Assembly: GCA_965112155.1 (NCBI GenBank)
Contig: OZ218098.1
Length of the DNA stretch: 64,000 bases
Source: Podarcis liolepis
Lineage: Eukaryota
Reading direction: 5' to 3' (one strand)
Part shown: piece by piece, positions 1 to 60,630 of the stretch
How the letters are laid out: every line of letters begins with the position of its first letter
Numbering within the stretch: position 1 is the first letter of the stretch
Notes under the pieces: generated by a model
The model's database searches: none
What the model saw: only the letters and a program-made list of their open reading frames with translations
What the model was told of the DNA's origin: nothing
Program-made: the position numbers and the translations under genes

Positions 1-239
1 GTTGGGGGGCCCTCCAGCAGAACCCGCCTCTGCATGAGCGGTAAGAATTCCTTCCACAGCATCCCCCTTCTGGAGATCCAGGACACTTGCACGTGCTGAG
101 GAAAGCCGAGGCCAGCTCCCAAGTCAGATTGCCGCGCTCTGCAAGCAGCCCAGTGCACAATACTGTGCCCCACAATCCAGACCCGGATAGTGGGAAGACC
201 TAGGGTAAAACAACAGATGTGAGTACATGAAACCAGCAT
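1..239 (-). CDS. ORF4: SGNH/GDSL-family hydrolase (partial; continues past window start)
   Basis: Manual translation gives MLVSCTHICCFTLGLPTIRVWIVGHSIVHWAACRARQSDLGAGLGFPQHVQVSWISRRGMLWKEFLPLMQRRVLLEGPP... with no stop. VWIVGHS matches SGNH block I (G-D/H-S) and RRGM matches block II. The ATG at 239-237 overlaps the YR stop codon (TAATG). Confidence 0.85.
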   Translation of the reverse strand, partial: MLVSCTHICCFTLGLPTIRVWIVGHSIVHWAACRARQSDLGAGLGFPQHVQVSWISRRGMLWKEFLPLMQRRVLLEGPP

Positions 240-1212
240 TATTTCCGCACATAACCCCTGTATGCGCCCGACTTCCAACGACCCAGGTCTTTTATCCTTT
301 TAACCGACAAGCCCCAATGGGCAGCTGTCGTTGCTGCCCCAATCCTAAAGGAATGCGGAGCAAATTCAGAGGCGGCATGGCCACAGGCAGCCACGACCTT
401 GCGCAAGACCCCGGCAAACTGATGGCGCGCCAATGGCCGCCCATCCTCATGAATGAACAGTGGCCCATTTCCTGGAGGTCGTAAAGCCATATACCTCTGG
501 AGGTCCTTAACTGGGCAAGGGCCCCCCATCCCAGTTGCTGGGAGCCGAATAACTGCTCCCCTACCCAGTTGATCAGTTTTGGAACTCCTAACATGGACCT
601 GCAGTTCTGACTGAGACAGGCTCACGTCCTGTAGCAGCAAGCCTCTAGAACCACCATCCTGTTTAGGTTCAAACACCACTTCCCCAACTCTCAGGGCCCC
701 GAAAAAGGCTAGCGAATAGGCTGCGGAAAATAGCCGAGCCTCAAACTTAGACCAACAGATGCCCTTCAATTTACCTCGCATCTCGGTCAACAAGCCAAAC
801 GTTATAGGCCTCCTTGTAGCTGGTCTGGACGGGCAAAGACGCCCCCAACCCTCCAAAGCCTTGCGTACAACGAACTTCCCACAAGGATCAGTATTGAAAT
901 AAACCTTGCTAAAGAAGGAAATTGCGGCAGAATGCAACCTCAGAGTCCTGGCTGCCCGCCGCATCTGAAATAGATGCGCCAAATATTTGAGCACTTGTGC
1001 AGTAGAATGAGGTGTGTGCATTTTCCCTACCACTGACCGCCCTGTAAAATGCAAAAAATCGGTCCAAGCCTTCTTATAGGACCGCAATGTGGAGGGGGCA
1101 ACAGATGCAGCTACTCCCTGTAAAACTAAGTGCTGCCAAGGTTCCAGAGATGATCCGGGAAAAATTCCGGACGGTCTCGAGCCACTGGCGCCAGGGACCT
1201 GAACCGCTCCAT
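239..1212 (-). CDS. ORF3: tyrosine recombinase (YR)
   Basis: Catalytic motifs ALRVGE (R), SKTDQ (K), HSFRIGAA (HxxR), GRWKS (W) and AYRGY (Y). The frame stays open upstream of the track's TTG start (1087) through SVAPSTLRSY to a TGA near 1232. The start given here is the candidate splice acceptor. Confidence 0.93.
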
Positions 1213-3018
1213 CTGAAAACGGGACAGAGCATCAGCAATCTCGTTAGATACTCCAGGAACAAAACGAGCGGAAAATACAATATTAGAACGCAAGCAATGC
1301 AAAACAAAACCCCTCAACAGTGCTGATACCCTAGGTGAACGTGAAGACTGCTTAGCAAGCACGTTCACCACTGCCAGGTTATCTGTCCAAAAACATACAC
1401 GCCGGTCCCTGAATTGCTCGACCCACAAATGGACGGCCACTACAATGGGGAAAAACTCAAGAAAGGTTAAGTCCCGAGTTATGGCTTCCCCACGCCAAGC
1501 CAGAGGCCAGCGCTCAGCACACCACCTGCCATCCCAATACAAACCGAAGCCCAATGACCCTGCGGCATCAGAGTGCACCTGAAAATCATTACACAGGTTC
1601 AAGGTGTCCTGCCAAAGTGACACGCCATTGAATTCCTCCAGGAATTTCAACCAAATACGAAGATCAGCACGCACTTGGGCTGACAGGCGCACTCTATGCC
1701 TCGGGGACCTCAATCCAGACATAAGTCTGGCCAAACGGGAACAGAAAGGCCGCCCAGGAGCGATCACCCTGCACGCAAAATTCAGGTGGCCCAGCAACGA
1801 CTGCAGTTGTCGCAGAGTGACCTTTTTTAACGGGATGAGGTCAGAAATAACACCTCTCAGCGCAAGAATCTTATCCGCCGGCAAACTGGAAGTTTGCGCC
1901 ACCGTATCCAACAAAATACCCAGGTAAGTCAGCTGCGTAGAAGGACCTTCAGTCTTCTCTGCAGCTAACGGCACACCCAGTTCCTCAGTTAAGGCCGCGA
2001 AGGCCTGCAGCAATGCCACGCAGTCTCCCGTATCGCTAGCTGAGGCCAATAAATAATCATCAAGATAATGAGTGACCCCGCCCAGGCCGGTTCTTTTGCG
2101 CAGGGCCCAATCCAGGAAGGAACTAAAACACTCGAAGGCGGCACAGGCTACTGAGCAGCCCATGGGCATGGCCTTGTCAAAATAAAATTCCCCGTCAAAC
2201 TGAAAACCCAGCAGCCAGAAATCGTCTGGATGAATCGGAAGCAGCCGAAATGCAGACTCAATGTCGCATTTGGCCAGCAGGGCACCCTGCCCGAATTTCC
2301 TTATCATTTTGATCGCTTGATCAAGCGATGCATACTTCACAGAGCAAAGCTCCGGGGGAATAACATCATTTACTGATGTGCCCCTAGGGTGAGAAAGGTT
2401 GTGAATCAGGCGAAATTCCCCCGGAGCTTTTTTAGGAACTATACCTAAGGGCGAAATATGAAAGTTGGGAAATGGGGGCTCAGCAAAGGGGCCGGCCATA
2501 CGTCGTAAAGCCAGTTCTTTCCCAATTTTCCTACGCGCGACCTCCGGCATTTCCCTCACTGACTTCTGGTTTGAAGGGTTCCTAGCTACTGGAGTTGACG
2601 CCACTGGGATTCGAAAGCCCAGAGAAAATCCATCCCGCAAATAGGACGCTGCTTCCTGAAGAGGGTATAATTGTAACCACGACAACAACGGCTGCAACTT
2701 AACTGGGGTATAAGCTAAAGAGGAAAGAACACTATTTTCCTGCTCCAGAGACTGTAGCCTGGGGGGCGGCTTTTGGGGGCTGCTGAGAGCCCCCCCCTTT
2801 CCGAAAGGGCCGACGCACCCCCGCACAAGAAGATGCCGGGTGGTTCCCTGCACACTTCTCACAGCTGTGGGAAAATCTGCAGGACTGGCGCTGACAAGTA
2901 CCCCTATTAAAATCCCAACAAAAGTACTTGCGACCCACCTTAGCCGGCACAATCTTAGGCTTCTGCAGTTCAGGGACCTTATTATCGATGCGTGGAGCCA
3001 CATAAGTAGTCCAGACAT
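1126..3018 (-). CDS. ORF2: reverse transcriptase + RNase H (DIRS/Ngaro type)
   Basis: RT motifs SPLGIVPKK, FRLIHNLS, KCDIESAF, MPMGC, HYLDD and YLGI. RNase H motifs SDAAGSLGFG, LEFFP, TDNLAVV and NEIADALSR. Overlaps gag at its 5' end and the YR frame at its 3' end. Confidence 0.95.
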   Translation of the reverse strand: MSGLLMWLHASIIRSLNCRSLRLCRLRWVASTFVGILIGVLVSASPADFPTAVRSVQGTTRHLLVRGCVGPFGKGGALSSPQKPPPRLQSLEQENSVLSSLAYTPVKLQPLLSWLQLYPLQEAASYLRDGFSLGFRIPVASTPVARNPSNQKSVREMPEVARRKIGKELALRRMAGPFAEPPFPNFHISPLGIVPKKAPGEFRLIHNLSHPRGTSVNDVIPPELCSVKYASLDQAIKMIRKFGQGALLAKCDIESAFRLLPIHPDDFWLLGFQFDGEFYFDKAMPMGCSVACAAFECFSSFLDWALRKRTGLGGVTHYLDDYLLASASDTGDCVALLQAFAALTEELGVPLAAEKTEGPSTQLTYLGILLDTVAQTSSLPADKILALRGVISDLIPLKKVTLRQLQSLLGHLNFACRVIAPGRPFCSRLARLMSGLRSPRHRVRLSAQVRADLRIWLKFLEEFNGVSLWQDTLNLCNDFQVHSDAAGSLGFGLYWDGRWCAERWPLAWRGEAITRDLTFLEFFPIVVAVHLWVEQFRDRRVCFWTDNLAVVNVLAKQSSRSPRVSALLRGFVLHCLRSNIVFSARFVPGVSNEIADALSRFQMERFRSLAPVARDRPEFFPDHLWNLGST

Positions 3019-4363
3019 CTAAATCCTTACGATCCCAGCGGGCAGTAGGGATCTTGGCAGCCCTGCGCCTGAAATTCTCATCATAAGAGATTGCAGCAGA
3101 TGCTCCCGCCATCGTAAACGCTGAACGGACTATGGACAAATAAACCCATAGGTGCATGGATCTCCGTGGGTAAGCCGCTGCCACCACGCCAGCGAACACC
3201 TGGAAACTATCCAACCATCGTTCAAAGGTCCTTTCAGCCTTTGGCAAGACCACCCTCTTTTTCGTGGCTGCCACACCCTTAACCTGCGAGTCCTGGCACT
3301 CCTGGGGGGGTGCCAAACTAAATATGTCAATGTAACGACCGTCCAGAATCCTGGACCGCAGTTTTGTATGCAAGTGGGCACCGGGAATAATGTCCCTAGC
3401 CGAATTGGTAGAAACCTTCACGTCAGGCATGAGGACCCCATCCAGGCAGTCCTGCACCGCCCCATACCTAGCCCTGTGAGAGTTTGCCCTCCGCTCCCAA
3501 GCCCATTTAGGGAGTCCAGAGGTCTCCGCAAAGCCCCAGTATAGCTTAAGTGAGGCTTCCTCGTCGCTACTGGATGTTTGGGACGAAGTACCTGTGGAAG
3601 AAGACGAAGTGTCCCTCCGTCTTCTCTTGGCGCGCCTCCTGGACTTCTTTTTCCGGCGGCGGAGCCCACCCGAAGACGACTTTGGAGGTGGTGGAAGGCT
3701 GTCCTCCACAGAGGACTCGGATGCGTCACCCTGCATCGCGACACCTGAAACTGACTGAGGCAGAGGATGAAGTGTCCCTCCGACTCCGCTTGGCCCACCT
3801 CTTGATGCTCTACTTCTCTGCTGACCTGTACCAGGAAGAGACTGAAAAGACAGAATTTGTGAATGACCAGGAACCAAACGGACAGGCGCAGAAGGCGGGA
3901 CGCCTGGCGCCTGCACTGCTCTGATCCTAGCTGACGCCCTTCTATTAGCCGTACCCCTAGCACTCCCCCGACCCCTTCGAGCAGGCACCGGCACTGCTGG
4001 TAGGTCCGGGGCCTGGGCCAAGGCGCCAGGAGAGGAATCACCGGCTGCTACAATCCCTCCCTCGTCTTCACTAGAAGAGGACACAGAAGAGGCAATGCCA
4101 GCAGGAGGAGCCGGCCCTGCGGTAGAAGTTGATGGAGTAGAACAACGATGTAACAGGCCATCCATTTCAGCCTCCAATCGGGCCAGTGCAGGAGGGTCAC
4201 CAGCCAGACCAGTGACCATGGCCTGGATGCGGCTCATCGACTGGTCTGGCCGAGGTGACCGCAGAGCCTGGGACGGACCCTTTATAGGCCTTTTTGTTTT
4301 CATAGGCTGTTTTGTTGAGGGCTCCGGCCCAGGCCTCCTTGCCGCCCTCCTCTTTGGAGCCAT
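2732..4363 (-). CDS. ORF1: gag-like nucleic-acid-binding protein
   Basis: First ATG at 4363. Low-complexity N-terminus, a basic NLS-like run (RRRKKKSRRRAKRRRR), and C-terminal CWDFNRGTCQRQSCRFSHSCEKCAGNHPASSC (a CCCH finger followed by a CCHC knuckle). Confidence 0.88.
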   Translation of the reverse strand: MAPKRRAARRPGPEPSTKQPMKTKRPIKGPSQALRSPRPDQSMSRIQAMVTGLAGDPPALARLEAEMDGLLHRCSTPSTSTAGPAPPAGIASSVSSSSEDEGGIVAAGDSSPGALAQAPDLPAVPVPARRGRGSARGTANRRASARIRAVQAPGVPPSAPVRLVPGHSQILSFQSLPGTGQQRSRASRGGPSGVGGTLHPLPQSVSGVAMQGDASESSVEDSLPPPPKSSSGGLRRRKKKSRRRAKRRRRDTSSSSTGTSSQTSSSDEEASLKLYWGFAETSGLPKWAWERRANSHRARYGAVQDCLDGVLMPDVKVSTNSARDIIPGAHLHTKLRSRILDGRYIDIFSLAPPQECQDSQVKGVAATKKRVVLPKAERTFERWLDSFQVFAGVVAAAYPRRSMHLWVYLSIVRSAFTMAGASAAISYDENFRRRAAKIPTARWDRKDLDVWTTYVAPRIDNKVPELQKPKIVPAKVGRKYFCWDFNRGTCQRQSCRFSHSCEKCAGNHPASSCAGVRRPFRKGGGSQQPPKAAPQATVSGAGK

Positions 4364-4472
4364 ACCTGCTGCCAACGGGACACAAATTCACTGTAAATGC
4401 GAGTAATCTAGCAATTAAATCACTCAGACCCAAAAATTTAAACCGCAAAGTAACCAATTACTTCCAGGCAGG

Positions 4473-4620
4473 TGCAATTCTACCGCTCGCCAGCAGGTGG
4501 CGCACCGGCAGCCTAAGCCAATTATAGGCTGCACTTGCTATCAATGGCCACTAGAGGCCAGCACACCAGTGCAGAAAGGCCAAAGAAAATGGCGCTCCCG
4601 CCAAAACGCCAAAATGGCGA
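4473..4620 (+). promoter_or_regulatory. Two CTCF-like and two YY1-like motifs in the element leader
   Basis: GCCAGCAGGTGGCGC (4489-4503) preceded by TGCAATTC; GCCACTAGAGGCCAGC (4547-4562) preceded by TGCACTTG; AAAATGGCG at 4586-4594 and 4611-4619. Confidence 0.5.
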
Positions 4621-4789
4621 CCCTCCCCGCCCCCGGTCAATAGGCCACCTACAAAGGCCTAAATTAGGCCGATTGCGAGCCAAGAAGGCCGAAACCGGGC
4701 AGCGGCGCCCGCGCAGCCCCACCAGCACGAAGCGGCCCGGTAGGCGCGCGCCAACACCGCCACCCTCGTGAGCGTGGGGGGGGGGAACG

Positions 4790-5440
4790 CGGAGGCCCTT
4801 CTGTGGGCCGGGAGGCCGCTCCGCGGCCTGTCGCCGGCCCCCCTGCCACCCCGCAATAACCCGGGGGGGGGAACACCACCCGGCCTCTCGCAAGGCCTCA
4901 GGCACCTAAAGGCCTAGCGGGCCTAGCCCGAGAGCGCGAGGCGCGAATCGGCCGCTCCCGAGGCGCCCGCGCGGCGCCTCCACCTACTCGGCCCTGCTAG
5001 GCCGCACCAGAAGCGTCGGAGCGCGCGCTAAAGGAGGCCGGCTCCTCTGGGCCTAGCGGGCCCAGCCGCCGAGAGCGCGAGGCGCGAATCGGCCACTCGC
5101 CGATGCGCCCGCGCGGCGCCTCCGCCTGCTCGGCCCAACTAGGCCACGGCAGGGAAAAAACGTGGAGGCCCTTCTGAGGGCGGGGAGGCCGCTCCGCGGC
5201 CTGTCGCCGGCTACCCTGCCGCCCCACAATACCCAGTGGGGGGGGGAGGAGCACCAGCCGGCCTCTCGCAGGCCACGGGCGCCCAGAGGCCCGGCGGGCC
5301 CAGTCGCCGAGAGCGCGAGGCGCGAATCGGCCGCTCGCCGATGCGCCCGCGCGGCGCCTCTGCCCACTCGGACCGAGTAGGCCACAGCAGGCGCGTCGGA
5401 GCGCGCGAGAAAGGAGGCCGCCGCCGACCCGGTAAGTGCC
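4790..5440. repeat. GC/CpG-rich nested tandem repeats in the retrotransposon leader
   Basis: A GAGAGCGCGAGGCGCGAATCGGCC...GCGCCCGCGCGGCGCCTC unit occurs at ~4930, ~5070 and ~5310. A GGAGGCCCTTCTG...GGAGGCCGCTCCGCGGCCTGTCGCCGGC unit occurs at ~4791 and ~5164 (period ~373 bp). Confidence 0.85.
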
Positions 5441-5889
5441 CGCTCCAAAATGGGGAAGGGAAGGAGGGAGGAAGGGACAAATACTAAGCCTAAGGTATTA
5501 AATGCGGTCCCCCGGCCCTGCGATCCCCCCGGGCCTGTTGGTTAAGGCTGAGAGTGCCAGCCGGCAATGGCCGGGGCCCACCAGACCGATCCCCCTTGCC
5601 GGCTTCAGCCGCGTGCCGGACCGTAAGCCCTGGGTCTGGTGCCCAACCCAGCCACCCCAGCGGCCCACAGGGCCCAACGCCCCGGGGGAGCTGCGTCAGG
5701 GGTCCAACTAAAATTAAAACCAAGAAAACTCAGAAAGAAGAGAAAATTAAAAGAGGGGGGGGGGAAGAATGGCAAAGAAATAGGTAAAATAAATAAAATT
5801 AAAAGGAGAGGAGATTAGGAATAGAAACGAGTTGTATACAACCAGTCCTTCGCTATGGCTCGATCCGATGCTGATCCGATGCCCACAGC

Positions 5890-5992
5890 AAAAGAGAAAG
5901 CAACACTCTGTGGGCCTTGCTTAAATATCCTCTGATCTCCACCCCCCAATTGGCAACATTCAATTTTCCCCAGCAACACCAACACCAATCTT
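5890..5992 (-). promoter_or_regulatory. Putative Pol II promoter of the retrotransposon
   Basis: Minus-strand TATTTAAG (~5920-5927), a pyrimidine-rich initiator-like CTTTCTCTTTT about 25 nt downstream, and CCAAT boxes at ~5946 and ~5985. Confidence 0.5.
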
Positions 5993-7187
5993 GACCAGTT
6001 CCTTTCCCAAGATTCTACCTGGCAACTAAAGGGTGCTTTGCCTGGCCCCAGCCGCAACACGTGCTCTCCTTTAGTGAGAACACGCTCTGTCTTCTTAAAG
6101 CTACATACGGTTCAATAGAAGAGATAAATGTTTGGCTAGCTAACACCCAGTTCATAAACACAATTACGTGGAAGGAAGCTCAATTGATTTCATTGAGCTT
6201 AGATCAGAATTCTGCTCTAGTGTATTTAATCAGGAAATCAAGTATTTAGGGCTTTTGCAATGATTGAAAATCAGTTGAGTTTCCAGGAACCTGCATTTGT
6301 GATATGAAGATTTAGCAGCATTAAAAAGAATAATAGTCTGGGTCATCTTTTTGTCAGCCATGGTGTAAAAAATAACCATTTTTTTAAAAAATAATGAGGA
6401 TAGAAATTGACTTTTAAACTATATTAATTTTGCAGGAATATTTAGAAAGGATTTACAAATACAACAAGAAATGAAAAGTTAGCATTTCCTCCACTTTGAT
6501 TGCATGTTTTTAAAAAATGAATAGAAAGGACAGAATCTCTTTTTAGATTGGGAAAAAGAGCAATTGTTTCAAAATATTTGGACCCTAGATTTAAATGTGC
6601 TTAATTCTGAGCTCAGCAGTGTGACAGCATTTTTATTCAACTATTTCAATACTAAAAAAAGAATAAGGCAAACATTAACCCTACCTCCCAAACATTACAC
6701 GAGTACCACTACTCTTTTAGTGTGGGAAGTAGAAAAGTACAGAATCATACAGATTAAAATTGGATAAAGTATTAGTAATTGATCATAAAATATTAAAGAC
6801 ACTTAAAAGTGTCAAGTGGAAAAACAAAAGTGAAAACGAAAACCCATACCCCACTCCAAGCTTAAATAGTGTACATGTGAAATACAAAAGTTGTTAAGAA
6901 AATTATTATTGACAAAGATAGAGTGGCTTAAAACAGACGTCACTTGGCAACTTCGGTAAAGATATTAAAATTTCAGGAAGCCACCTACTACTTCCTGTGT
7001 TTCAATAATAGTTCTTAGTAGCGTCCATGTCTATGAACATGGTTTAGAAAACGGCAAAACATGTAGCTCAGGAGTGATGAACCTGTTGCCTTCTAAAAGT
7101 TGGCTTGTAACTCCCATCATCTCTGAACGTTGGCAATGCAGGCTGATGGGAGTCAGAAATTTTTGAGCTATTTTTATAGCAACCGAA

Positions 7188-7302
7188 ATGGGTTGCCGTA
7201 TGTCTGGATTTCCCTGGGCGTTTCAGCATTTTCTGCCTGGACACTGCTTCCGACTGCTGTATTCTGGCTATGTCCAGGAAATTCTGGACATATGGCAACC
7301 CT
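7188..7302. mobile_element. Short MITE with (TA)GGGTTGCC terminal inverted repeats (hAT-like)
   Basis: GGGTTGCCGTATGTC...GACATATGGCAACCCTA. Relatives at ~24870-25121, ~26562-26785 and ~41566-41680. Confidence 0.6.
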
Positions 7303-7827
7303 ACCCTAGGGTCTCTGGCGGTGGTGTAGATGAGCAAAACTTGGTATCTAGAACAAGTGACACTGTTTTATTCACTACTGGAGAACATAAAAGCTCTTTT
7401 GGAGACTGTGAAGAATTAAAGAGACACATTGCACAGAAGGCCGCTGTTTGAAACCCATGTAGGCATGTACAATTAGTCGCGTGGTGCTTGGGATCCCGGC
7501 CAGCGAGCCCAATAAATTGCTTACATTCATCGCCATCATAATGTCAGCCTGAAGGATTGTTTGTGTAGGTGTCGTCCTCCTCAGTGCAATGAAAGTCATT
7601 TTTAACGCCAGTTTGAGTAGGTTTGCTTCAGTGATGGTTGTTGCATGTGGCAGGAAGCTGCAAAACAAACAACAACAACCCTATACTATATGGGGGGGAA
7701 ATCATGCTATTTCCTATATACATTGACAACTTCTGGATCTATGCATCAACCAAATTACCGGTACGCTTGAGGCCATGTTAAATAGCCAGGAGCATGGAGT
7801 CATAACTGTGGTGACAATGAGCTGCTA

Positions 7828-8197
7828 TGGACATGGGTATCACTGTGGTCTAAACCTCTGAGCCTCTTGGGCTTGCCAATCAGAAGGTCGGTGGTTCAAA
7901 TCCCCGTGATGGGGTGAGCTCCCATTGCTCTGTCCTAGCTAGCAGCTGAAAAGCACACCAGTGCAAGTAGATAAATAGGTACCACTGCGGCGGGAAGGTA
8001 AATGGTGTTTCTGTGCGCTCTGGCTTCCATGAAGGTGTTGCGCCAGAAGCAGTTTAGTCATGCTGGCCACATGACCCGCAAAGCTGTCTGTGGACAAACG
8101 CCGGCTCCTTCAGCCTGAAAAGCGAGATGAACATTGCAACACCATAGTTGCCTTTGACTGGATCTAACCGTAAAAGGGTCCTTTACCTTTACCTTTT
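7828..8197 (+). mobile_element. Sauria SINE
   Basis: tRNA-derived head (GGTTCAAATCC B-box), GCAAGTAGATAAATAGGTACC core and TTTACC tail. Confidence 0.88.
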
Positions 8198-8495
8198 ATG
8201 TAGCTTTTGAAATGGTAGCAAGAAACCAGGAAGAGTCTGTTCCATTGACACTGAACATTAATCTATAGGTCAGTAAGAACAGAAGAATAGCTTTGCTGGA
8301 TCAGATCAAAGGTCCACCTAACCTAGACGTGTTCTCACACTAGCTAACTAGATACCTACAGGAAGCTCTTAAGCAAGACAGAAGCCTAATAGTTCCCTTC
8401 AGCAGTAAATTCCTTGAATCCAGCCTTTTCTTTACATCAGGTATGGGGAACATTTGGCCCCACAGATGATTACTGAACTAAAACTCCCATAATCT

Positions 8496-8790
8496 CTGGT
8501 CTGAAGGAGTGTCTCCACCCCCATCGTTCAGCCCAGACACTGAGATCCAGCTCTGAGGGCCTTCTGGTGGTTCCCTCATTGTGAGAGGTGAACTTACAGG
8601 AAACCAGGCAAAGAGCCTTTTTGGTAGTGGTGCCTACCCTGTGGAACACCCTCCCAGCAGATGTCAAACAGCTATGTGATTTTTAAAAGACATGTGAAGG
8701 CAGTCTTGTTCAGGGAAGTTTTTAGTGTGTGATATTGTGCCTCCCCCCATTTTTTGTTGGGAGCCATCCAGAGTGGCTGAGGCAACCAGG
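8496..8790 (+). mobile_element. L2 LINE 3' fragment
   Basis: Encodes a degenerate L2 ORF2 C-terminus (PTLWNTLP) plus the 3' UTR. Matches the copies at 35164 and 44995. Confidence 0.7.
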
Positions 8791-58632: not shown

Positions 58633-59172
58633 ATAGAATCATAGAATCATAGAGTTGGAAGACACCACAAGGGCCATCAAGTCCAACCCCCTGCCAAGCA
58701 GGAAACACCATCAGAGCACTCCTGACATATGGTTGTCAAGCCTCTGCTTAAAGACCTCCAAAGAAGGAGACTCCACCACACTCCTGGGCAGCAAATTCCA
58801 CTGTCGAACAGCTCTTACTGTCAGGAAGTTCTTCCTAATGTTTAGGTGGAATCTTCTTTCTTGTAGTTTGGATCTATTGCTCCGTGTCCGCTTCTCTGGA
58901 GCAGCAGAAAACAACCTTTCTCCCTCCTCTATGTGACATCCTTTTATATATTTGAACATGGCTATCATATCACCCCTTAACCTCCTCTTCTCCAGGCTAA
59001 ACAGCTCCCTTAGCCATTCCTCATAAGGCATCGTTCCCAGGCCTTTGACCATTTTGGTTGCCCTCCTCTGGACACGTTCCAGTTTGTCAGTGTCCTTCTT
59101 GAACTGTGGTGCCCAGAACTGGCAGGTGAGGTCTGACCAGAGCAGAATACAGAATACTATTACTTCCCTTGA
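58633..59172 (-). mobile_element. CR1 LINE 3' fragment
   Basis: (ATTCTATG)n tail. ORF2 C-terminus LFSLEKRRLRGDMIAMFKY...WNLLPRSVVESPSLEVFKQRLD. Confidence 0.93.
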
Positions 59173-59174
59173 TC

Positions 59175-60630
59175 TAGAGAGTTGAAAGGGGCCCGAAGGT
59201 CATCTAGTCCAACCCCCTGCAATGTAGGAAACTCAGCTAAATCATCCATGAGCAACCTCTGCTTTAAAACCTCCAAGGAAGGAGAGTCCACCACCTCTCG
59301 TGGGAGTCTGTTCCACTGCCGAACAGCTTTTACTGTCAGAAAGTTTTTCCAAATGTTTCGTCAGAATCTCCTTTCTTGCAACTTAAAGCCATTGGTTTGA
59401 GTCCTACGTCCAGAACAGGAGAAAACAAGCATGCTCCCCCCCTCCATGTGACAGCCCTTAAGATATTGGAAGATGCCTATCATACCTCCTCTCAGTCTCC
59501 TCTTTTCCTGGCTAAACATACCCAGCTCCTCATAAGGCTTAGTTTCCAATCCCCTGATCATCTTGGTTGCACACATTCCAGCTTGTCAACATCCTTCCTA
59601 AATTGTGGTGCCCAGAATTGGACACAGTATTCCAAGTGTGGTCCCATGTACTGCTAGCAAGCCAGGTGTCCCCCATCCTGCATTTGTGCATCTGGTTCTT
59701 CCTGCCCAAGTACAGAACCTTACATTTGTTCCTATTGAAATTCATTTTGTTAGCTTGTGCCCAGTTCTCCAATCTGTGAAGGTCATTTTGAATTCTGATT
59801 CTGTCTTCTGCGGCATTAGCTGCCCCTCCCAGTTTGGTGTCATCTGCAAATTTGATGAGCATCCCCTCAATTCCTTCATCCAAGTCATTTATAAAGACGT
59901 TAAACAACAACGGACCCAGGAGAACATGATCACTTCCTCCCGAGTTTCCGAGTACTTCCACTTCATTAATCAGTTCCTCCCTATTGGTGAGGACCAGGTC
60001 CAAGATAGATGACCCCCTTGTTGGTTCTTCCATCTTCTGGGAAATGAAATTGTCTGTGGCGCAATAGAGGAATTTGTCAGACCTTACACTCTTGGCAGAG
60101 TCTGAGTCCCAACAGATATCGGGGATGTTGAAGTCCCCCATGATTACTATTTCTCTCCTTTCTTAATGTTTGGTAATCTGCTCTAGTAAGGCATCAGCCA
60201 AGTCTTCAATCTGACTTGGCGGCCTATAGCAGACACCCACAGTAAGGTCACTGTTGCATCTCTCTCCTACCATTTTTACCCATATACAGTGGTACCTCTG
60301 GATGCAAAAAGGATCCTTTCCCGTAGCCCTGTTCGCATCCTGAAGCGAACGCAGCCTGCATCTGTGCATGCGCAGGTCACGATTCGCTGCTTCCACACAT
60401 GCGAGTGGCGTCATTTTGAGTGTCTGTGCAAGTGGCAAAACCCGGAAGTAACGCATTCCATTACTTCCGGGTCGCCACTGAGCGTAACCTGAAAACACTC
60501 AACCCAAAGCTACTTCAGCCCGAGGTATGACTGTATTCTCAATCCACTTTTCATTCTCCAGGTCATGGATTTCATCACAAGTGAAGACATCCTTTAAGTA
60601 CAACGCTACTACTCCTCCCTTCCTGTTTGG
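59175..60630 (-). mobile_element. Second CR1 LINE, internally deleted (endonuclease fused to late RT)
   Basis: Endonuclease motifs VGVCYRPP, MGDFN, LDLVL and SDH are joined directly to RT motifs LGPLLF and KFADDTKL. Confidence 0.9.
60287..60533. mobile_element. Tigger-like MITE nested in the CR1 endonuclease region
   Basis: TA-CAGTGGTACCTC...GAGGTATGACTG-TA. Confidence 0.8.

Follow-up and report, generated by a model that had tools for sequence, protein, structure and literature searches.

How does a retrotransposon that carries a tyrosine recombinase (YR) enter its target site, and what can a single fresh-looking copy tell us about it? The question is raised by a 64,000-nucleotide stretch of the lizard Podarcis liolepis (assembly GCA_965112155.1, contig OZ218098.1; G000:C1:112530001-112594000 in our coordinates), called the window below, whose first 6,086 bases form a GC-rich island (52-63% versus about 44%). 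An earlier note had placed an apparently intact, recently inserted Ngaro-like element at 1..6095. An element does lie there, on the minus strand, but its 5' end is at 6086 and 1,654 bp extend beyond the left edge of the window, the full element spanning 7,741 bp at G000:C1:112528346-112536086. Positions are window coordinates, and the left flank is numbered as locus L001. Our analysis indicates, with good confidence, a complete Ngaro-type element with four open genes that is likely very recent and likely polymorphic, and whose integration likely takes place after an AA dinucleotide, through a single crossover with a folded copy that is single-stranded at least locally.

The completed element reads A1–gag–RT/RNase H–tyrosine recombinase–SGNH hydrolase–B1–A2–spacer C–B2, where RT is reverse transcriptase. 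The A1...B1-A2-B2 layout that had been predicted for the left flank is thus present, and both repeat pairs (A, 215 bp; B, 434 bp) are 100% identical. Repeat A1 (5872..6086, minus strand), the 5' end of the element, contains an E-box, a CCAAT motif and a TATA-like TATTTAA, from whose sequence it is likely the promoter; the host flank ahead of it terminates in AG. The 5' untranslated region (UTR; 4388..5871) is rich in GC and CpG and holds degenerate internal repeats (100-260 bp, 84-90%). The other parts lie left of the window on the same strand: B1 (L001 1962-2395, G000:C1:112529162-112529595), with an AATAAA 96 nt ahead of its end; A2 (L001 1747-1961), which abuts B1; the 167-bp spacer C (L001 1580-1746), present once in the element; and B2 (L001 1146-1579, G000:C1:112528346-112528779), whose 3' end is GCAA. 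No inverted termini and no internal complementary region (ICR) were found in the completed element (window plus left flank), the features by which the earlier note would have recognized a DIRS1-type element. The abundance of CpG that it had remarked on is reflected in observed/expected ratios of 0.64 in the open reading frames (ORFs) and 0.91 in the 5' UTR, versus 0.31 in the remainder of the window.

All four frames on the minus strand are open, as had been claimed. ORF1 (2732..4363; ATG at 4363, open from 4387, 551 aa stop to stop) is Gag-like, with a C-terminal CCCH-type zinc finger (Pfam zf-CCCH, weak, E 0.03). ORF2 (1126..3018, 630 aa stop to stop) encodes RT and RNase H, overlaps ORF1 and ORF3, matches RVT_1 at E 3e-14, and has YLDD at residue 318 (2067-2056) together with the RNase H blocks DAAGS, LEFFP, TDN and IADALSR. 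ORF3 (239..1231, 330 aa stop to stop) is the tyrosine recombinase, with the R-K-H-R-W-Y set intact (R181, K218, H293-x-x-R296, W319, Y327) and with matches to Phage_integrase (E 7e-6) and SAM_4 (E 3e-5) just below the cut-off. ORF4 (224 aa; 1..299 inside the window, ending at G000:C1:112529625, 376 bases left of it) has the SGNH blocks GHS, RRGM, LGEND and DGVH; its match to Lipase_GDSL is below the cut-off (E 0.0014), its homologues are annotated SGNH, and its predicted structure (predicted local distance difference test score, pLDDT, 92) finds SGNH folds in Foldseek, while a PDB sequence search returned no match. All of these motifs presumably have the catalytic roles assigned to them. Gag-like, RT/RNase H and YR frames stand in Ngaro order, and there is no DDE integrase. 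The absence of a methyltransferase agrees with the earlier reading: ORF2 stops just past RNase H and matches RVT_1 only, and a PF05869 profile search of the genome, which may be insensitive to DIRS-type methyltransferases, gave no match. The ratio of nonsynonymous to synonymous divergence (dN/dS) against the window copy is 0.02-0.22 across the four ORFs where dS is estimable (0.06-0.22 for the esterase, ORF4), and judged by these ratios all four are under purifying selection.

How old is this copy? Because the repeats show no difference over 649 bp, the insertion should be at most roughly 1 million years old, given an assumed rate of about 2e-9 substitutions per site per year. The recent insertion proposed at the outset is also reflected in two near copies, both with four open frames: the nearest full-length one is 99.8% identical (10 substitutions in 7,741 bp), and a second, of A-ORFs-B form, is 99.3% identical. 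For the empty site, contigs of four public runs (X1, X3, X6 and X11) were aligned to 5450-8500. In X6, a different sample that carries the organism label of the best-matching data, and in X3 and X11, which come from other organisms, the contig alignment begins exactly at 6087, leaving 434, 434 and 172 unaligned letters, respectively, on the element side. Since all element forms seen have A abutting the 6087 point, these breaks are best read as an empty allele, which fits the suggestion that the insertion may be polymorphic. Two points weigh against this reading: the contig of the best-matching run, X1, starts at 6110 and is uninformative on the empty site, and the empty allele is read from the position of the contig breaks, not from the unaligned letters. 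We conclude that the copy was likely inserted very recently and is likely polymorphic, and that activity is plausible.

The related copies in the genome leave a signature of how they were integrated. Among 92 insertions, the target flank has A at -2 in 90 and A at -1 in 78, and positions -3 to -5 show milder preferences; the target of the window copy is AG, unlike the AA majority. The internal B|A junction reads GCAA^AGC. When the core dinucleotide is compared between the ends of 59 elements (44 full elements, 43 read via the internal junction and 1 via the right end, plus 15 divergent ones), it is AA at the right end in 59/59 and non-AA at the left end in 10/59 (Fisher p 0.0013). These flank counts exclude L048 (A1 out of range), L050 (site shared with L052), L055 (5' end unmatched), L014 and L051 (overlapping fetches), and, out of 20 divergent loci, the 5 in which the two repeat pairs were not both present. 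At targets that fall in host repeats, paralogous copies span the site nearly always gap-free (12/107 sites informative), and therefore there is no target duplication. Every exact B|A junction (46/46, in 45 elements) leads into spacer C, so that permuted copies number 0, and 15 of the 20 divergent loci have the same A1-ORFs-B1-A2-B2 layout. As a separate observation, the insertion at L065 lies in a SINE-like repeat (short interspersed nuclear element) at CCCCGCAA^CGGGG, a mimic of the CGCAA end of the element.

The B|A junction also has a structure of its own. Across 27 sequences, whose families reach down to 62% RT identity, a hairpin of about 90 nt is predicted at B1|A2. Its predicted sense-strand form places the crossover right after a 5-6-bp stem in 27/27 and at an internal loop in 26/27; the sense strand is lower in folding energy in all 27, and the RNA z-scores run from -2.3 to -8.9. 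Eight of 20 pairs are altered on both sides, 93.9% of cells are paired versus 37-58% in slid controls, and pairing also exceeds that of shuffled controls. The GU-rich tail of B is paired by the hairpin at B1 only, and on this pattern a read-through switch at B1 is plausible. Several points about the hairpin weigh against our main reading. The 27 sequences are non-independent, and a shuffle control can be beaten by related sequences without structure. Moreover, the hairpin favours the sense strand, with T-G at +7 invariant in 27/27, while the logic of the recombinase suggests that the antisense strand is the one cut, and the hairpin may therefore serve RNA processing only.

Spacer C is conserved as well: its identity holds at 86-92% where that of RT DNA drops to 73-80%. 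Its fold, common to the 27 sequences, sets a U-rich internal loop between G-C stems, and a long-range helix with compensatory change ends 23-25 nt ahead of AATAAA in 7/7 close subfamilies. By analogy the loop resembles an expression and nuclear retention element (ENE), and in the available text of PMC12501189 the ENEs of Evade/Copia93 and of the PAN RNA from KSHV (Kaposi's sarcoma-associated herpesvirus) likewise combine a U-rich internal loop with G-C stems upstream of the poly(A) signal; here, by contrast, the loop is a prediction and sits in a spacer unique to read-through RNA and solo units. Two features argue against the resemblance: the U-tracts are short (4-6 U in the window copy) and vary between subfamilies. 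An Rfam scan of the whole element gave no match at E up to 1.

The esterase frame is predicted to be expressed as a fusion. A phase-1 splice donor GT in Gag, after 3592, is kept in 35/35 elements, and a YAG acceptor lies 20 nt ahead of the SGNH tryptophan, with an exon from 199, in 34/34 elements that have the motif (31 flagged by script and 3 with CAG-C read from the output; the motif is missing in 2/36). Two NCBI models, P0124 and P0128, contain the same join. We predict that splicing joins the first 257 Gag residues to the esterase and so yields a fusion protein. This would be reminiscent of the LINE (long interspersed nuclear element) ZfL2-1, in which a retrotransposon SGNH fold is joined to the ORF1 protein (PDB 4C1B; Foldseek E 1.6e-6). 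However, that element belongs to an unrelated class, identity is 19% and the template modelling (TM) score 0.46, the fusion here would be spliced, and the ORF4 model fits bacterial SGNH enzymes better. In the part of the published work that is available, the function of the hydrolase is described as unproven.

How could these parts work together? We propose that the element is copied through RNA, whose transcription would begin late in A1. The B1|A2 hairpin would sequester the GU-rich stretch past the AATAAA of B1, so that some transcripts would read through to B2; the internal B|A template and the ENE-like loop would be present in these alone, and the loop would shield their poly(A) tail. Reverse transcriptase would then restore the missing ends from the B1|A2 template, the recombinase would act only at the rebuilt B2/A1 junction, cutting at the internal loop of the hairpin, and the folded single-stranded copy would integrate by one crossover after an AA dinucleotide; the esterase would be supplied by the splicing onto Gag just described. 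A more specific hypothesis, which we advance tentatively and at somewhat less than an even chance, is that no two-junction circle is involved in Ngaro integration at all: the repeat-A hairpin would splint the ends of the single-stranded cDNA, as the ICR does in DIRS-1, and the recombinase would carry out a single strand exchange at a 2-nt AA target, in the manner of integron cassettes. The same hairpin in RNA, with the ENE, would be the switch that marks genomic RNA, and the solo A-C-B and A-ORFs-B forms could be by-products of template jumps.

Why not a circle, the intermediate invoked by the earlier note? The same element might integrate as a classical double-stranded circle by two-strand exchange, its hairpin working in RNA only, either in poly(A) read-through at B1 or as a landmark for RT. 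This is the standing model for DIRS in the accessible part of PMC7192593, and to that extent the earlier statement holds. In addition, the G-U-rich pairing favours the sense, RNA-like strand, and in duplex form a small inverted repeat brackets the AAA core. The two B|A junctions of such a circle would, however, be identical over 649 bp, and about half of the copies should then be permuted, against 0/45 found, which is at odds with a circle whose two junctions are equivalent. Likewise, unbiased resolution of mismatches should leave non-AA cores at both ends, and all 10 are at the left. To account for both patterns, some further asymmetry would have to be built into the circle, for example a nick or an end held by protein; we regard the circle as a serious possibility, though one that we doubt. 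Since the permuted half is missing, the integration substrate was, as far as junction sequences can tell, probably asymmetric, in agreement with the linear, single-stranded cDNA of Dictyostelium DIRS-1 described in that same part of PMC7192593. We therefore keep the folded, locally single-stranded copy as our preferred substrate.

Two further alternatives concern the element itself. It could be a recent passive relic, silent and fixed although its sequence is intact, with sister copies that came from another master copy. The CpG ratio of the ORFs, 0.64 and not near 1, is in keeping with this, as is the lack of any sign that the window locus is the source of either L002 or L003. However, the probable empty allele in a sample of the same label and in two other organisms, together with zero repeat divergence, excludes "fixed and old" and leaves "silent" standing; on the whole we consider such a relic rather unlikely. 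A place in another YR group, PAT-like, DIRS1-like or VIPER, is highly improbable. Split direct repeats do occur in PAT-like elements and VIPER, according to the available literature, and our RT tree took in no named DIRS1, PAT or Ngaro reference. Yet of the DIRS1-like traits neither inverted terminal repeats with an ICR nor a methyltransferase is found, of the PAT-like traits the split repeats are present and the methyltransferase is not, and a hydrolase ORF after YR is a trait described for Ngaro in the literature available. By every structural feature tested the element is a Ngaro, of the Xenopus DIRS-53_XT type.

The class itself is already known, though little studied. In the available portion of PMC9210276, Xenopus DIRS-53_XT and DIRS-54_XT have the same four overlapping ORFs (gag, RT/RH, YR, SGNH; RH is RNase H), the same A1-ORFs-B1-A2-B2 plan with 100% identical repeats, and no methyltransferase; they differ in host, the present one being a lacertid, and in repeat lengths (A 215 and B 434 bp here, 236 and 152 bp in Xenopus). 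Xenopus RTs are about 50% identical to that of the window. That portion of the paper assigns the hydrolase type to amphibians and makes no mention of a target rule, hairpin, ENE-like spacer or splicing. As in Xenopus, the ORFs here overlap, unlike those of most Ngaro elements, which are usually non-overlapping according to the part of PMC3266345 available. Dictyostelium DIRS-1, as presented in the accessible part of PMC7192593, shares RT plus YR, the lack of target duplication, a short A/T junction core and an internal template for rebuilding the ends; it has inverted repeats with an ICR, a methyltransferase and a trinucleotide core where our element has direct repeats, a hydrolase and a 2-nt AA core. 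Gene-free A-spacer-B units recall the solo AB repeats of Cafeteria Ngaro (PMC8547959) and the SIRE of VIPER (PMC6681497), both available in part; unlike those, the lizard family also includes A-ORFs-B copies and a single case of an extra A-C-B unit in tandem. Our literature search, with most subscription papers, Repbase and Dfam outside its scope, found nothing on lizard Ngaro structure, target rule or junction hairpin, and no paper testing the integration of split-repeat YR retrotransposons.

The family is large and follows the host phylogeny. A genome search with RT, the copy-number check suggested earlier, gave 1,868 candidates; the 147 that were scored have 71-100% identity, and an internal stop is absent from 143 of these. 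The nearest named RT proteins are from Podarcis (81-83%), Zootoca (79%), other squamates (53-60%) and amphibians (about 50%), and in a tree of 19 own and 31 named RTs the lacertid sequences group together (1.00) within a squamate clade (0.98). Horizontal transfer is not indicated, the tree being broadly host-congruent. A census of copy forms covered the first 100 of the 131 exact matches to the B end, 98 of which were retrieved: full elements account for 50 (as 25 B-B pairs), solo A-C-B units for 44 and A-ORFs-B forms for 4. The solos are older on average (median distance to the nearest copy 12 versus 3 substitutions, p 0.012), and 16/43 lie within 4 substitutions of theirs. We do not take the 44:4 preponderance of A-C-B units over A-ORFs-B forms to prove direct insertion, since it is also accounted for by selection against long copies.

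Several observations concern the family alone. In a young non-autonomous subfamily (L019, L020, L023-L025, L031, L037, L039, L040, L042, L046, L053, L054 and L103), Gag is largely or wholly missing and RT/YR has decayed (about 30-48% aa); there is a TGCA-rich tandem array, A/B pairs are identical or nearly so in most full copies, and near-identical solos are numerous. The L020 group has a second open SGNH ORF (194 aa, 77%) with a splice acceptor. L050 and L052 (G000:C89 and C263) are one insertion site on two small contigs, and the extra tandem A-C-B unit of L050 reflects either unequal B1/B2 exchange or an assembly artefact. Divergent RT families (71-76%) are strongly clustered on a 40-Mb contig (G000:C20), possibly the W chromosome. 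In L036, L017 and L075, Gag and RT share one frame (885-1,064 aa), probably via frameshifting indels, and the L007 left flank, the L043 5' region and L105 show insertions in or beside apparent copies or remnants of the same family.

In the window, an ITPRID2/SSFA2-like gene shares the strand of the element, which sits about 5 kb downstream of its last coding exon; the end of the gene is placed by what we take to be its last-exon motif, and its exons (11000-44500, minus strand) match SSFA2_C and KRAP_IP3R_bind. A very high-copy SINE-like repeat occupies 7843-8200, and decayed fragments at 58711-60162 resemble what we take to be a CR1-like LINE.

A young family with many intact copies thus supplies natural statistics that constrain mechanism: permuted copies are absent, non-AA cores lie on one side only, and the crossover falls on a covarying hairpin. 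The family further offers defined substrates for a vertebrate recombinase that has a 2-nt target and leaves no duplication, and its polymorphic insertions are usable as population markers. Large and possibly still expanding in lacertids, the family is well suited to testing whether a hairpin splints the ends for integration.

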